DNA of 64,000 nt from the NCBI GenBank assembly GCA_043754535.1, contig JAYUUN010000124.1:14012-78011 (forward strand), given 5' to 3'. Made by a program: the position numbers. Below are positions 36,001 to 42,000 of this stretch, in pieces; within the stretch, counting starts at the first letter, position 1; the number at the start of each line of letters is the position of its first letter. This stretch comes from Chloroflexota bacterium (GTDB lineage Bacteria > Chloroflexota > Chloroflexia > QHBQ01).

Positions 36001-39000
36001 GCTGCGCCGCATCCTGGCGGTAGACTTCACGAAGGAGTTGGTGGTGGTGGACGACGGTTCGACCGACGGCACCCGCGCTATCCTTGCCCAGTGGGAGAGA
36101 CATCCCGACGTGCGGATCATCTACGCGCCGCAGAACAGAGGCAAGGGGACAGCGATCCGCCTCGGCCTGCGAGAGATAGTGGGCGAGATCGTGGTCGTCC
36201 ATGATGCTGACCTGGAATATGACTCGCGGGAGATGCTGCCGATGCTAGAACTGATCGCCCAGGGGCGGGCCGACGTGGTGTACGGCAGCCGCTTCCTGGG
36301 CAGTGTGCGGGGGATGAAGTTCCAGAATTGGGTGGCGAACCGCCTGCTAGCCATCAGCGCAAACCTGCTGTTCCGGGCCAACATTACCGACGAGGCTACG
36401 GCCTACAAGGCGTTCCGCACAGCGATCCTCCGCACGATCAAGCTGAACTGCACCCGCTTCGAGTTCTGTCCAGAGGTGACAGCGAAGGTACGCAAGAAGG
36501 GCTACAAGATAGTTGAAGTACCAATCCACTACGAAGGGCGCACGGCATTGCAGGGCAAGAAAATCAAGCTGAGCGACGGCTTCGAGGCGTTCTGGACGCT
36601 GCTCAAGTATCGGTTTAGGGACTGAGGCGCAGCAGCAAAGGAGCTTAATGAAACCACTAACGATCATCATGGGGACAAAGGGTGAGTACGTCAAGATGGC
36701 TCCTGTCTTGCGCGAGCTTGACCGCCAGCAGGTGCCGTACCGCCTGCTACACACCCGCCAGCACAGCCACACCACCGATGTGATCACCAATATTTTTGCT
36801 CTGCGCCAACCGGATGTGCTGCTGGATCAGCGCACTGTTGACGTAACCAACGTGCGCGACGCGGCACAGTGGTTCCTCAAGGGCTGTTGGCACGCTCTCC
36901 GCAAGCGCAGGGCGTACTTCCCCGCTGGCAAGGGCATCGTATTGCTGCATGGTGACACGCCTTCGACCCTGCTAGGGCTGATCATCGGCAAGCTGGGCGG
37001 GCAGGCCGTTGCTCATGTGGAGGCGGGCCTACGCAGCTACGACCTGCTCAACCCCTTCCCAGAGGAGTTGGTACGGATCATCACCAGCCGCTTCGCCCGC
37101 TACCTGTTCGCCCCCGCCGACTGGGAGTACAGCAACCTGGTGAAGGAGAAGCTGGCAGGCCGCAAGTGGAACACCAGGGTGAACACGGTCTACGAAGCTC
37201 TCACCTACGCCCTGATCCGTTACAAGCAGAAGCACGCCGACGGCAACAGCGATCTCAGCACGCCGCCTGATCAGCCCTACGTCGTCGCGGTCGTCCACCG
37301 ATTGGAGAGTATCCTCAATCAAGAGCGGCTGAAGTTCGACATTGAGGTGATCTTGCGCGTTGCCGAACAACACCACGTCGTCTTCATCCAGTACAAGCCC
37401 ACGATGGAGAAGCTGGCCGCCTACGGGATGCTGGACAAGTTGCTCAACCACCCAAACATCGAGCATCGTGGCTACCAGGACTACTTCAGCTTCATGAACC
37501 TGATCGCCAACTGCACCTATGTGGTCTGCGACGGTGGCGGCTTGCAAGAGGAGACCTACTATCTGGATCGACCCTGCCTGCTGCTGCGCAGCGCAACCGA
37601 GCGGATCATCGGCCTGGACGAGACAGCCCTGCTCAGTAAGTTTGAGCCAGCCCGCATCAACTACTTCCTCGCCAACTACCAGCAGTACCATCGCCGCGAC
37701 GACCTGGAGGCAGCCCGCCCCGCCCAGGTGATCGTAGATGCGATGCGCGAGTTGATGGCCGAGTGAAGCACAGTCCCCCCCCCGCTTCCCCTAGTGAGAA
37801 GGGCGGAAGCCTGCTACTCTCTGGCTGGTACGGCGGCGGCAATGTAGGGGACGAAGCGATCCTCGCTGCTCTCTTGCAGATGGTGCGCGACGAGCGGCCC
37901 GACCTGGCGGTGGCTGCGCTGTCGGTTGATCCTGGCTATACGGCGGCGGCACACGATGTGAGGGCGATCCCGCGCCAACCGCTGGCGGCCCTGCTGGCAA
38001 TACGCCGCTGCACTGGCTTTGCCCTCGGCGGCGGCGGCACGGTGCAGGACGTGACCAGCGTCTACAACCTGCCCTCCTTCCTCATCTACCCCTTGCTAGC
38101 GAAGCGGCTGGGCAAACGCGTGGTTTGGAGCGGGGTGGGGGTTGGGCCACTGCGTACGCGGCTGGGGCGGCGGTTGGCCTGGCTAGCTGGGCAGCAGGCC
38201 GACGCGATCAGCGTGCGCGACGAGGCTTCCGCCACCTTGCTGCGTGGGATTGGGGTGGCAGCGGCAAAGGTGCGGGTGACGGCAGACCCGGCCCTGCACC
38301 TTCGCCCACAAACCGGACCTGGCGTGCTGAAGCTAATCGCTAACAGCGGTATACATAGAGGTGGTGCAGAGTCGGACGGCCTGGATGCACTCCACGTGAC
38401 CCAACCCGGCTCCGTACTAGAAGGTAGGAGGCCCCTGGTCGTCTTTGCAGTGCGCCGCCCGCTCGATCCTGCGTTGCACGGCCTGCGCCCTGGCTACCTC
38501 CTGCCAGTCAGCCTGCGCGAACGCTTCCACAGTTGGTCGGCGGCGGGCCAAAAATTGTATACGGAGACAACGGCGAAGCTAGCCCAACTAGCCGACTACT
38601 GGGCGGGGCTGGGAGCGGATGTCCTCTTTATCCCCTTTGACCCGGTAGACGCATTGGTGAATGCTGCGGTGATCGCCCAGATGCGCCAACCGGGTGCCGC
38701 CCACCAGCTAGCCGGGCGGCACCATCCGGCGGTAGTGATGGGGGTGGTCAACAGGGCAGATGTAGTGGTGGCGATGCGCCTGCACGCGCTGATCTTCGCG
38801 GCAGCCTGCGGCAAGCCAGCCCTGGCAGTTAGCTACGACCGCAAGGTGAGCAGCTTCATGGCGCAGGTGGGGCTAGCCAACTACTGCCACCCGCTGCAAG
38901 GTGGCGACCTGCGGGGAGCAGCGGCAGACCTTTGGCAGAACCGTGATATAATAGCAGCCACCTTGGGGGCGCGAGTAGAGAGCTTGAAAGGGAGAGCGGT

Positions 39001-42000
39001 TGAGAACAGCACCATCCTCATCGGAGCAGCCGACGGTAGCAGGGCTTAAGCCGAGTCGCCTGCGCCGGGTTCTGGCCTGGGTACGCAGCGCACGAGGGCG
39101 CACCATCTTGCAGATCACCCTGATCGCCCTCGTTCTCGTCGCGTTCGTCTGGCAGCTAGCGGGCAATTGGGCTGACCTATCGCGGCTGCAACTGCGGCTA
39201 GACTATAGCTACCTCGCTCTATCGGCGATCCCGCTGTTCGGCAGGCCGTTCCTCTCAGCCTTCGGCTGGTGGCAGGTGGTACGAAAGCTGAAGGGGGAGC
39301 TGGGGATCGCCAGCGCGATCCACATCTACTTCATCTCCGGGCTGGCCCGCTACGTGCCTGGCCCCTTCCTCGGCAGCATTGGGCGGGCCTTGATGGCCGA
39401 AGAAGCGGGCGTGCCAGCAGTTACTGCTACCCTCAGCGTGCTGATCGAACTAGGGCTGCTGGTTGCCAGCGGGGTGATCCTGGGGGCGATCTGGACTGTG
39501 CTACACCTCTCCAACGACCAGGTGATCTACATGGTGCTGCTCGGCATCTTCAGCCTGATCCTGCTCAACCCCCGCTTCTTCTTGCCACTGCTCAATCGAC
39601 TACTGGGCCGCTTCAAGCGTAAGCCCATTGCGCTGAACCTGCACCTTGGTGATATGTTGCAACTACTTGCCCCTTACCTGCTCAACTGGATGCTCAATGG
39701 CCTGACCTTCTACCTCGTGCTTAAGGCGATCTCGCCGCTGGGGTATGACCTGTTCAACATCATGGGCATCTACATCGTCGCCCTGACGGTGGCGATCTTC
39801 GGCCTGATTACACCCGACGGCTGGGGCGCTCGCGAACTGGCGTTGGGCAATATGCTGGTCAGCTTTGCAGCGATCCCAGCAGTGCTAGCGACCGGGCTGG
39901 CAATCTTCACCCGCGTCTGGTGGATGGTCAGCGAAGCAGCATGGGTCGGCCTCGCGCTGTTGCTTGGTCGTGGCAGGCAGGCGGCAACGCCGCCACTGGA
40001 TGAGCAGAAGTAACAGGTAGCCTTCTGCTACGTTGCATAGCATGATGCATAGTTTGGGCTGCTTAGCGGGTGCCATTGAGGATAAGCGCAACCTTGAAAA
40101 GCGGGCAGCATTATTTGACAAAATCCTAAGGCGGTGTTATGATCCGCTCTACCTTCTAGAGGATAGAGGGTCGCACGAACGTATCAACCGCCAGCCAGCC
40201 AACGCTCGTCCCGGCTGCTGGTGGAGAGCGGGCTAGCCAAAGGCAGAAGAGACTGGCTGGACCACCGTCAAGGGACGAGTGAAGAGAAAGGTTGAGAGAT
40301 GAGGAACAAGAGAGTACAGAGTTTCGTAGCTCTGGGTTTGACCGCGCTGCTGCTGATCATGACGCTGGGGCAGTCCCTGACGACCAGCGCAAGGAGCTTG
40401 ACCGCTGCGCCTGCCAGCCAAGCGGTGAATGGCAACTCGGCTGATGCTGACAAGGCACCAGCTGGTGCCGTGCAAGCACCGGCAGTTGACACCTCGAAGG
40501 GCTATGCTCCGCACACCCCACTGGTAGAAGACCCTGGCCCGTGGAGCAACGGCACAACTGGCCCTGCTGCACGTTACCGCTTTGGCTCCGCTTCTGACGG
40601 CGTGCGCTATATCTATGTCTACGGTGGTGGTGATGGTGCTGGGGCGATCAACACCCTCTGGCGTTGGGACTCGACCAACGGCACCTGGACGCAGCTTGCC
40701 AATATGCCCACTGCCAAGCAGAACGTGCAGGGCGCATACTACAACGGCAAGATTTACGTGCCAGGCGGCTATACTGGTGCTGCCCACATCAACGAGAATG
40801 CGATCTACGACGTCGCTACTAATGTTTGGACAACTGGCACAGCTCAGACGGTAGCGCAGAGTGGGACGACCGCTGCGTACAATGGCAACATCTACGTCTT
40901 CGGCGGTAATCCTGGGCCTAGCAATACAACCCTGATCTACAGCACCACGGCCAATACCTGGACGGCAGGGGCGAATCTGCCCGTCGCTATCACATACGGA
41001 CGCGCAGTTGTTGCTGGGAGCTACATTTACTATGCAGGCGGCATCGCTGCTGGCACTAGTGCCGGCGCACTCTATCGCTATGATCCTGCTGCCAACACCT
41101 GGACGACGCTTGCGGCGATGCAGACTGCGCGGAGCAGCGAAGAACTGATCGCATCACCCACTGGCAGTAAGCTCTACGCCATCGGTGGCGCAACCGGTAC
41201 TACCTTCTTCAGTGGCTTGCCCCTCTCCCAAACGGTTGAAGTATACGACGTTACCGCCAACACCTGGTCCTATGGCTCTCCGCTCGTCACTACTGCTTCT
41301 GGGGTTGGTGGTGGACGTGTAGGCAACAACCTGATGATCCTGGGTGGCGTTGACGGTACTACCTACTTTAACAACGTACAGGTGTCAACTGTCACTGGTG
41401 GCTCAACCGCAACCAGCACCCCGGTGCCGCCGACTGCAACCAGTACCCCTGCAGGCCCAACTGTGACCGCGACCGCGACCCGCACCGCCACAGCGGTACC
41501 AACGGCATCGCTGACCGCGATCCCTGTTAGTTCGACTAACTGGAGTGCCTTGCCTGCCCTACCCAGCGAGCGGTTCCGCCTGGCGGCTGGTGCAGCCAAC
41601 AACCGCGTCTATGCCTTCGCTGGCCGTCCGAACAACACTATCTACCTGACCAGCATCGTCTCGATCAACCCTTACACCGGCACGGCCTGGATCACGGAGA
41701 CGGCCACCTTCCCAACCGCGCGCACCGCTAACCTGCAATCTGCCACCTTGACCGAAACCAGTGGCACCTACGTCTATCTGGTGGGTGGCTCTGGTGCCGC
41801 CTCCGACCTCAGCGGCACCAGCACCGTCTACCGCTTCGACCCGACCAGCAGCACCATAACCGTCCTCAGCGACTCGCTGCCACTCACCAACACGACTGGC
41901 CTCGGCTCGGCGGTACTCAACAACAAGTGGTACATCTTCGGTGGCTTCACCCCACCGACTAACACCCTCTCTGCCCAGACCTACGTGTTCGACCCCAATG

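Follow-up and report, generated by a model that had tools for sequence, protein, structure and literature searches.

The window analysed here, a 64,000-nucleotide stretch of a Chloroflexota contig, carries a pyruvyltransferase gene at 37763..39049, and this raises the question of whether an uncultured order of Chloroflexia hangs its S-layer homology (SLH) proteins on a pyruvylated wall polymer, as a first-pass annotation had proposed. In the survey of 1,093 genomes by Witwinowski et al., the Chloroflexi are stated to have lost both SLH and CsaB, and serve as an example of their loss along with the outer membrane. In contrast to this described phylum-wide loss, SLH-tagging is confirmed in the order, at about 60–140 proteins per genome. 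The reading favoured below, to which we give a probability of roughly two-thirds, is that these proteins would be anchored non-covalently on a pyruvylated surface glycan.

The gene lies in a cluster transcribed entirely from the + strand. The first member encodes a 783-aa, DUF6541-like, multi-pass membrane protein (33445..35796), a candidate GT-C glycosyltransferase. It has about 12 hydrophobic segments, DUF6541 is matched by its homologues and by a paralogue in the source genome, and D157 and H161, in the first large loop, are invariant in the family. A PDB search by sequence found no match to the protein, and hhalign of the family against a PMT_2-bearing protein (probability 68%, E 4.9e-5) gives a weak GT-C likeness. 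The next gene (35717..36625) specifies a GT2 of the polyprenyl-phosphate sugar synthase type (PF00535, 110 bits), whose best NCBIfam matches, below cut-off, are AglJ, dolichyl-phosphate hexose transferase, ArnC and PpgS; in genome G039 the GT2 and the DUF6541-like protein share one open frame. It is followed by a UDP-GlcNAc 2-epimerase-like (MnaA-like) paralogue (36648..37766; PF02350, 164 bits; TIGR00236, 176 against a cut-off of 210) found only in family f1. Copies 78–98% identical occur in the four other f1 genomes, matches in families f2 and f3 stand at about 30%, and only in this cluster (type B) does the epimerase-like gene adjoin a csaB-like gene. Downstream of the pyruvyltransferase are an LPG_synthase_TM membrane protein (39000..40013; PF03706, 56 bits), presumably a lipid-linked sugar flippase by its family membership, and a 971-aa secreted-type Kelch beta-propeller (40299..43214; Pfam Kelch_1 and SLH) with a signal-peptide-like start and a C-terminal SLH trimer, one of the 83 SLH proteins of the genome.

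The pyruvyltransferase is present where it had been annotated, as an intact 428-aa ORF matching PF04230 (PS_pyruv_trans) at 122 bits, and is the sole match to that family in the source assembly. Its description as CsaB-type holds in part. The CsaB-like genes of the order form one clade (support 97/91) with f2 and f3 subclades, and the window gene falls inside it. Catalytic residues were mapped by motif via a homologue from Paenibacillus cellulosilyticus, as a proxy for P. alvei; the motifs GWYG, SVRD, AVR, MRLH and YDRK align with the Paenibacillus catalytic motifs, and the equivalents of R148, R207, R306, H308, K328 and Y14 are kept in 17/17 order rows. The acceptor-side Y13 and F16 are replaced in all 17 rows, by W and G/S. 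On the other hand, the protein scores 202.4 with TIGR03609, just under the cut-off of 213.1, and Chloroflexia without SLH have CsaB-like genes as well. The paralogue of the other cluster (type A) in the same species scores 186.8, and the cut-off is passed in only 3/40 order genomes; WcaK models give the window protein just 39–45 bits.

A CsaB-like gene was found in 37 of the 40 order genomes, the three misses being 62–81% complete. The window gene is not the csaB shared by the order; it is a paralogue from a second cluster confined to family f1. The separate, order-wide cluster has the form GT4(-GT4)-csaB, mostly with GT2 and LPG_synthase_TM, and is present in the species of the source genome, where it falls in a gap of the assembly.

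The envelope of the order is supported as monoderm by the absence of Omp85 (0/40 genomes), so the SLH proteins would not act as an OmpM tether; no porin families were found among the Pfam matches of 91 SLH proteins. The source genome carries PBPs, two WecA/TagO-like genes, TagA, an LCP ligase and an MnaA-like gene. TagA is class-wide (139/151) and therefore does not single out this order. The tagA, tagO-like and lcp genes sit apart from both csaB clusters, and a scan of neighbouring genes at 17 loci of the order and at locus L186 found no tagA/tagO, Wzx or Wzm/Wzt exporter; csaB clustered with tagA/tagO and an exporter does occur in families f26 and f23. The proposal of a Bacillus/Clostridium-style wall is thus favoured by the trimer fold, the pocket residues, the monoderm envelope and the TagO/TagA/LCP genes, but the csaB locus has neither TagA nor an exporter, so that we infer a peptidoglycan-linked, Bacillus-like polymer rather than read it from the locus.

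This arrangement of genes bears on the alternative that survives best, in which the tag and the pyruvate epitope are the same and the carrier differs. GT2, GT4 and CsaB would assemble a short pyruvylated glycan on polyprenyl phosphate, and the LPG_synthase_TM protein would flip it. A GT-C enzyme would then transfer it to glycolipids of the membrane or to glycoproteins at the surface, where it would serve as the SLH docking site. The conserved csaB neighbours fit, as they are the polyprenyl-phosphate-sugar synthase-type GT2, LPG_synthase_TM (15/17 order loci) and DUF6541-like or DUF2079 membrane proteins, rather than TagA or Wzx. So do the weak GT-C likeness of the 783-aa family, a second DUF6541-like and LPG_synthase_TM pair upstream of an SLH amidase on contig C113, and the Thr/Ser content of the 40 residues preceding SLH (median 30% vs 12% background). 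We nevertheless consider a different carrier unlikely: TagA, WecA-like and LCP genes exist in the genome, and a DUF6541-like gene occurs in only 5/17 csaB loci. Three-part GT2/flippase/GT-C systems are generally used to decorate a wall polymer already in place, and for this reason they fit a pyruvylated, peptidoglycan-linked polymer equally well.

The ligand side of the system was examined in the trimer of the Kelch protein (42612..43211, + strand), which has three cysteine pairs. Its AlphaFold model (pLDDT 96.9, pTM 0.91) has the three-pronged spindle fold of Sap and SpaA. The best Foldseek match is 3pyw, Sap-SLH (E 1.1e-11), SpaA-SLH entries come next, and of the 15 matches at E ≤ 0.001 each of the 14 listed is an SLH structure of Sap or SpaA. 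The described pyruvate-binding pocket (PMC6081394) involves Gly29 and Arg43, with Trp13 stacking on the ManNAc ring. Across 76 trimers, Gly29 is kept in 75, 76 and 73 at the three sites and Arg43 in 76, 76 and 75, while the Lys that follows Arg43 is found in 73, 25 and 66. Trp13, in a register set by alignment with Sap, is retained in just 11, 9 and 12; it is mostly replaced by I, L, V or F (Phe at the third site in 46/76), usually with Phe-Tyr next. Cysteine pairs at the three sites (both/neither/one cysteine present) number 59/10/7, 46/26/4 and 52/23/1. One VKOR was found in the genome, and in the commonest trimer type the three pairs are probably disulfide-bonded.

The replacement of Trp13 would suit a further alternative, in which the ligand of the SLH trimers is peptidoglycan or some other structure without pyruvate, as for OmpM of Negativicutes, and the CsaB-like genes serve to pyruvylate a capsule or exopolysaccharide unconnected with SLH, as presumably in SLH-less Chloroflexia. 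Polyamine-dependent SLH binding exists and counts in the same direction. CsaB-like matches occur in 73/258 other Chloroflexia whose SLH proteins are few or absent, and score 174–196 bits in six. Two such genes from SLH-less genomes are fused to a polysaccharide flippase. The two examples from SLH-less genomes that were examined keep the catalytic motifs too, so the motifs are not specific. Linkage within the order is also at about chance level (0.27), an SLH gene being near csaB in 6/17 loci. Against this stand the near-invariance of Gly29 and Arg43 in all grooves, the frequency of the following Lys, and the near-universal presence in the order of a CsaB-like clade that lies apart from the two SLH-less examples. 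Elsewhere in the phylum, moreover, SLH-rich genomes have an adjoining pyruvyltransferase and SLH-poor ones are without it: PF04230 is found in 9/9 tested non-order genomes with at least 7 SLH matches and in 0/5 with 5 or fewer, a co-occurrence that rests on three related families. In seven of those nine, an SLH gene lies inside the 14–19.5 kb around the PF04230 gene. A non-pyruvylated ligand is considered slightly less probable than a different carrier.

Binding to a pyruvylated glycan would concern a large set of proteins. At E ≤ 1e-5, Pfam SLH (PF00395) matches 83 proteins of the source genome, the number first reported, and all are included in the 91 ORFs recovered by our own profile (built from 71 of the Pfam matches; 0 matches to reversed decoys). 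Three repeats are present in 79/91. The median length of 775 aa (773 in the first-pass annotation) and the 5.6% share of the assembly likewise agree, and the ranking of SLH as the commonest domain is supported against the two rival families compared, ABC_tran (49 domain matches, about 43 ORFs) and Response_reg (37 matches). Partner domains recur as listed for Peptidase_S8 (10), DUF7948 (6), Kelch_1 (4), M14, Cellulase and Amidase_2 (2 each) and amylase (1), but CarboxypepD_reg was found 6 times rather than 5 and Copper-bind twice rather than three times. The trimer is mostly C-terminal, as described, with the last SLH at most 75 aa from the protein end in 79/91 ORFs; of the 13 proteins said to carry it near the N-terminus, most are short ORFs or fragments at the edge of a contig, and only 6/91 place SLH first with cargo after it. 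The "large exo-enzyme arsenal" was overstated, since a catalytic Pfam domain is present in 18/83 (12 are peptidases; a glycoside hydrolase catalytic domain occurs in 3/83) and 29/83 have no Pfam cargo match. The proteins look secreted from their N-terminal sequence, which is signal-peptide-like in 68/71 long SLH proteins vs 262/896 background ORFs.

SLH was found in 40/40 genomes of the order, which comprise three families, with 57–138 trimers per genome in 12 well-assembled ones, compared with 6/261 other Chloroflexia and 14/400 in a phylum sample, consistent with the earlier statement that it is order-wide and rare elsewhere. The system is large-scale throughout the order but not confined to it, as other Chloroflexota families have smaller sets (7 to 17+ SLH matches) with an adjoining pyruvyltransferase and SLH types different from those of the order. 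Bacillota binning contamination or an assembly artefact, which might be suspected in a 132-contig MAG in which 22/91 SLH ORFs lie no more than 500 bases from the end of a contig, is refuted by the 40/40 genomes and an independent assembly (one contig obtained in a different study covers window 31500–42923, the two sequences showing 40 differences and 3 gaps), as well as by the spread of SLH ORFs over 55 contigs, a contamination estimate of 0.72%, top SLH homologues that, where named with a taxon, are all "Chloroflexia bacterium", and Bacillota plasmid SLH sequences that are only about 30% identical.

Under the favoured reading, the SLH trimer would be the general wall-sorting tag of the order. 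By their sequence, the tagged proteins consist of a Sec-type N-terminus, one of many cargoes (subtilases, carboxypeptidases, propellers, Ig-like or unknown domains) and three SLH repeats of the Sap/SpaA fold, frequently preceded by a linker rich in Thr/Ser. After export, the trimer may use Gly29, Arg43 and the Lys after it to bind a ketal-pyruvylated cell-surface sugar, whose pyruvate would have been added from PEP, in the cytoplasm, to a lipid-linked precursor by the CsaB-like enzyme. Family f1 has the window cluster in addition to the order-wide one. As carrier, a glycopolymer linked to peptidoglycan by TagO/TagA/LCP is most likely; since TagA is class-wide, pyruvylation and SLH tagging would be additions of the order to an older scaffold, the tag later being copied onto dozens of cargoes. 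Sortases coexist as a second route of anchoring. The sub-threshold TIGR03609 scores of both CsaB-like proteins of the species, the rarity of Trp13 and the chance-level linkage count against this explanation. A bolder reading is offered tentatively, as possible if somewhat doubtful: a disulfide-stapled, Trp-less SLH variant would be the main surface-sorting signal and read a lipid-carrier glycan made by GT2/GT4/CsaB/flippase/GT-C rather than a TagA-Wzx polymer, possibly on glycolipids or glycoproteins, and, with two further SLH types in the phylum, SLH/CsaB would have been retained or reacquired in at least three cases.

An entire order whose SLH proteome is among the larger ones, together with the smaller sets in other families, changes the picture of loss in Chloroflexi. 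The predictions are a pyruvylated wall glycan, a defined surface-proteome tag and two candidate enzymes, and the approximately 80 natural trimers, with fixed Gly/Arg and variable Trp and cysteine staples, form a test set for sugar discrimination by SLH.

The SLH/pyruvate anchoring principle itself is textbook knowledge, and the closest systems are those of Paenibacillus alvei (SpaA, SlhA; MnaA-TagA-CsaB) and Bacillus anthracis (Sap). Shared with these are three tandem SLH of the same predicted fold with Gly29 and Arg43, a pyruvyltransferase with R148/R207/R306/H308/K328-type motifs, MnaA-, TagA-, TagO- and LCP-like genes, and the absence of an outer-membrane marker. The system described here differs in its phylum, the almost always C-terminal trimer, the mostly replaced Trp13, the three cysteine pairs, the two csaB-like paralogues of family f1, and the company of csaB, which is with GT4/GT2/LPG_synthase_TM/GT-C-like genes and not with tagA and tagO (a Pontibacillus locus used for comparison is csaB-tagA-tagO-like). 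No lattice-forming S-layer protein was identified. The OmpM/SlpA SLH-porin tethers of Thermus, Deinococcus, cyanobacteria and Negativicutes also combine SLH and CsaB in a Terrabacteria lineage, but place a single SLH on a trimeric porin, whereas here the trimers are in one chain and Omp85 and porin domains were not found in the genomes and proteins searched. Three-component membrane glycosylation (GtrABC type) consists of GT2, flippase and GT-C; the window cluster resembles it in its order of multi-pass membrane protein, polyprenyl-phosphate-sugar synthase-like GT2 and flippase-like protein, but adds the epimerase-like and pyruvyltransferase genes, and its GT-C is weakly supported. In scale, the source genome packs its 83 SLH proteins into 3.9 Mb, and relatives reach at least 130, unlike Paenibacillus sp. 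JDR-2, with a genome of about 7 Mb. The number of SLH-tagged secreted proteins in that strain, 77, is comparable, and in both cases they are mostly multi-repeat, but 29/77 are carbohydrate-processing there (PMC4765114), whereas peptidases outnumber glycoside hydrolases here.

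SLH domains occur in all 40 genomes of the order, across three families (f1, which includes the genome under study, G000, f2 and f3) and five genera, as the first-pass annotation had proposed. A trimer profile applied at E ≤ 1e-15 to 12 order genomes at least 90% complete gave 57, 86, 89, 90, 103, 108, 111, 114, 116, 120, at least 130 and at least 138 hits, which are matches rather than gene counts. The values 108 and 114 belong to the unpublished genomes G002 and G003; G004 and G027, also unpublished, are included in the order tallies. The same profile found 90 matches in G000, within the range of the 12 genomes, and G000 is therefore typical. 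For comparison, Paenibacillus JDR-2 has 77 SLH proteins (PMC4765114). The feature is real, order-wide, and contradicts the published generalisation that Chloroflexi lost SLH and CsaB (Witwinowski et al., whose supplement may list exceptions). A literature search, covering few subscription papers, found no published account of this Chloroflexota SLH/CsaB system: the term 'SLH' is absent from the text of PMC13319060 and PMC10972752, the 'S-layer' passage of PMC10608941 concerns Dehalococcoides, and a match for csaB with Chloroflexota was about Thermus. Some single proteins are already named 'S-layer homology domain-containing protein [Chloroflexia bacterium]' at NCBI.

Outside the order, SLH was found in 6/261 Chloroflexia, among them 3/3 genomes of family f16 (10–46 matches), and in 14/400 genomes sampled across the phylum, of which several reach 7 to 17 or more matches. 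In a quick tree of 49 SLH rows, with long branches present, a branch with support of 98 sets off the order together with f16 and one stray genome, and a 'GC..CP' type (families f23, f26, f49, f7 and f62) has a branch of its own (99, SH-aLRT). The f16 proteins, in which the third repeat is degenerate and the other two are clear (loci L047–L060, from f16 and G251), represent a third SLH type. Families f26, f23 and f49, which belong to other classes of Chloroflexota, have sets of 'GC..CP' genes (loci L144–L152; G429, G506, G321, G562, G405, G566, G531, G639 and G597), and those of f26 and f23 adjoin Wzx- or Wzm/Wzt-type pyruvyltransferase loci.

The G000 assembly (3.87 Mb, 132 contigs, 88.9% complete, 0.72% contamination) contains 91 six-frame ORFs with SLH, 79 of them with three repeats, according to a profile made from 71 Pfam SLH hits of this genome that gave 0 matches in reversed decoys. 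Pfam SLH recognises 83 of these ORFs at E ≤ 1e-5, exactly the number of proteins first annotated, and its rank as the most abundant domain held against the two families counted here, ABC_tran (49 domain matches, ~43 ORFs) and Response_reg (37). Contig ends lie less than 500 bases from 22/91 SLH ORFs, compared with 74/914 other long ORFs, and in a few cases fragments at contig edges may be halves of a single gene. Contigs from three other studies likewise break within SLH-coding DNA, at window position 42923, and DNA depth over 42784–43217 shows a 4- to 7-fold pile-up; together these indicate near-identical SLH-coding DNA in other genes. Just 8 pairs of G000 SLH genes reach 90% identity across 100 bases, most of them where contigs break, which is no more than suggestive of ongoing swapping of SLH cassettes.

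A secreted-looking start (K/R, then a hydrophobic 12-mer, with at most one later membrane segment) is present in 68/71 long, 5′-complete SLH ORFs and in 262/896 other long ORFs, a background that includes spurious frames. No Tat motif was found among the G000 SLH ORFs checked, and one SLH ORF has a lipobox pattern. In 79/91 ORFs no more than 75 residues separate the end of the SLH region from the C-terminus, and in only six is SLH placed first in the chain; most of the 13 N-terminal cases reported earlier are fragments. The 40 residues ahead of the trimer are rich in Thr and Ser (median 30%, background 12%). Cargo is diverse, with 43 blastp groups from 77 proteins; 29 of the 83 lack any Pfam match in this part, and many carry propeller or Ig-like domains. 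Catalytic Pfam domains were found in 18/83 (Peptidase_S8, 10; M14, 2; Amidase_2, 2; GH5, 2; alpha-amylase, 1; FAD oxidoreductase, 1). The exo-enzyme arsenal envisaged by the first-pass annotation is a surface proteome, as claimed, but one rich in peptidases and propellers more than in glycosidases. The 3,435-aa SLH protein at C97:13687-23991(-) combines a DUF7948/SBBP propeller, a subtilase and carboxypeptidase-regulatory repeats. A 754-aa protein (C10:45346-47607(+), equivalent to L136:61-2322) has a C-terminal SLH trimer and one membrane segment at ~482–500, without a signal peptide. Its N-terminal region has no Pfam match and is kinase-like by eye only; the first 330 aa are found in 5/5 f1 genomes and 0/35 f2 and f3 genomes, and the protein is possibly a membrane-spanning wall sensor. 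Three short near-exact pieces from RNA run X12 map to the Kelch-SLH gene (window 40299..43214, with its trimer at 42612-43211), and among the matches listed none is on csaB; the pieces are contigs of one run and are therefore not evidence on expression.

The structure predicted from 76 trimers has a pLDDT of 96.9. Foldseek returned 15 hits at E ≤ 0.001, and the 14 listed are all Sap and SpaA SLH structures. In the known complexes, pyruvate is held by Arg43, the Gly29 backbone and a Lys, while Trp13 stacks on the ring (Blackler et al., PMC6081394). Across the three sites of the 76 trimers, Gly29 is conserved in 75, 76 and 73, Arg43 in 76, 76 and 75, and the pocket Lys in 73, 25 and 66. Trp13 is present in just 11, 9 and 12 (the G000 trimer on C118 is one that retains it); elsewhere the position usually holds I/L/V or F, with Phe-Tyr after it. 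Three Cys pairs show an all-or-none pattern (both/neither/one: 59/10/7, 46/26/4 and 52/23/1 of 76 trimers, which are related and not independent sequences). G000 has a VKOR, and the pairs probably form disulfides.

At window 37763-39049(+) lies an intact gene for a 428-aa PF04230 protein, the sole such match in the G000 assembly. Its TIGR03609 score of 202.4 is below the cut-off of 213.1, with WcaK models at 39–45, and most of its closest named relatives beyond the phylum are CsaB proteins from Armatimonadota, Margulisbacteria and Bacillota (best local alignments, 29–39%). CsaB-like genes are present in 37/40 order genomes. Motifs for the P. alvei CsaB residues R148, R207, R306, H308, K328 and Y14 (PMC10435577), mapped via a P. 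cellulosilyticus homologue, are kept in 17/17 order rows, in which the Y13 position is W and the F16 position is G or S; the pyruvyltransferase of f16 has no residue equivalent to Y14. Two CsaB trees were built, the first keeping 76/150 rows (17 from the order) and the second 46, after near-duplicates, unnamed database rows, the long branch G566b and both f49 rows were dropped. In the second, twelve rows of the order group as a single clade (97/91) that contains f2 and f3 subclades and is separate from five Bacillota rows. Common origin with family f16 is not rejected (AU p 0.53), and no donor can be named because the deep CsaB nodes are open. Transfer from Bacillota gains no support here: neither the CsaB-like clade nor the SLH rows of the order are nested among Bacillota, which have five rows in the CsaB tree and five in the SLH tree, but the deep nodes are open and the sampling is thin. 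The CsaB of G429, a genome outside the order, scores 286.9 with TIGR03609, over the cut-off, groups with Alkalicoccus and is a candidate for transfer.

Whether such genes are specific to the SLH system was judged from genomes outside the order. CsaB-like matches at E ≤ 1e-10 occur in 73/258 other Chloroflexia, six of them at 174–196 bits (including the unpublished G153 and G261), and in the two examples examined, from the SLH-less Chloroflexia G051 and G048 (L027:7723-10764 and L028:7450-9807), the CsaB-like domain is fused to a Polysacc_synt polysaccharide flippase; these genes count against specificity. On the other side, PF04230 was found in 9/9 non-order genomes with at least seven SLH matches and 0/5 with five or fewer, and this tracking of SLH-richness counts for specificity. 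That comparison drew on 14 SLH-positive genomes from outside the order, out of 20 such genomes; the one-match genomes G359, G413 and G459 were left out, and the three f16 genomes fell within the CsaB-like survey. Of the nine SLH-rich genomes, seven carry an SLH gene in the DNA surrounding the PF04230 gene, and the five loci scanned have Wzx or Wzm/Wzt exporters or TagA alongside. Within the order, adjacency of csaB and SLH genes (6/17 loci, chance rate 0.27) was discarded as evidence of linkage.

Two csaB layouts were recognised in the order. In type A, a GT4 gene precedes csaB in 13/17 loci by blastp (54–96% identity) and in a 14th by profile, with a conserved GT2 nearby in 10/17 and an LPG_synthase_TM gene in 15/17. 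Type B, the window cluster (33445..40013(+): DUF6541-like, GT2, MnaA-like, csaB and LPG_synthase_TM genes), was found only in f1; its epimerase-like gene has copies of 78–98% identity in the four other f1 genomes and none above ~35% in f2 or f3. Just upstream are an Amidase_3 gene (window 27908-28720(-)) and a mannose-6-phosphate isomerase-like gene (32027-33103(+)). The locus is present in sequencing runs from glacier, freshwater and sediment. Both types occur together in G036, G037 and G039. Type A of G036 comes after a DUF2079 gene, and in G000 the orthologue of that gene is truncated where contig C91 stops. The final 4,873 bases of C91 are matched at 99.5–99.7% by two metagenome contigs, which continue into cmk-GT4-GT4-csaB-HAD, a stretch for which the G000 assembly gives no match. 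Two CsaB-like genes are therefore present in the species, the second of them at L186:6001-7266, and the idea of a single csaB in the organism was rejected. The pyruvyltransferase first annotated is real but belongs to a minor, f1-only cluster and is not the order-wide csaB; the type A gene is the better candidate for the maker of the ancestral SLH ligand.

The 783-aa DUF6541-like protein of the window cluster has ~12 membrane segments and an invariant Asp in the first large loop. Its homologues match DUF6541, profile comparison links it weakly to a protein that bears PMT_2, and its family profile (A2) found nothing significant among PDB sequences. The protein is a likely GT-C candidate. In G039 (L182:2053-5082) this protein and the GT2 form one 1010-aa open frame, corresponding to two overlapping ORFs in G000. 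A second DUF6541-like and LPG_synthase_TM pair (C113:6261-12017(+), locus L170) lies directly 5′ of an SLH-anchored Amidase_2 gene, repeating the window-cluster layout. Many other large membrane proteins with multiple passes, some of which match PMT_2 or DUF2079, are found at C71:78365-82415, C23:31724-35867 and C84:13983-16127 and on C24, C44 and C93. This suggests a wide set of GT-C-type glycosylation enzymes in G000.

Omp85 was found in 0/40 order genomes. The wall genes of G000 include six transpeptidases, five sortases, one TagA, one LCP and three Glycos_transf_4 genes, two of them WecA/TagO-like and the third, near a PBP gene, taken to be MraY. The tagA, tagO-like and lcp genes all lie away from the csaB clusters. 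TagA was rejected as a marker of the system, being class-wide (139/151 genomes). The order would have joined pyruvylation and the SLH tag to an older wall-glycan scaffold that the class as a whole possessed. The pyruvylated repeat of P. alvei is assembled on a lipid carrier by MnaA, TagA and CsaB (PMC6030368). That the system works like the SLH–CsaB system of Bacillus and Paenibacillus is given a probability of roughly two in three. It differs from that system in three respects: its SLH trimers mostly lack Trp13, its enzyme scores under the CsaB cut-off and has different acceptor residues, and its csaB is not clustered with tagA and an exporter.
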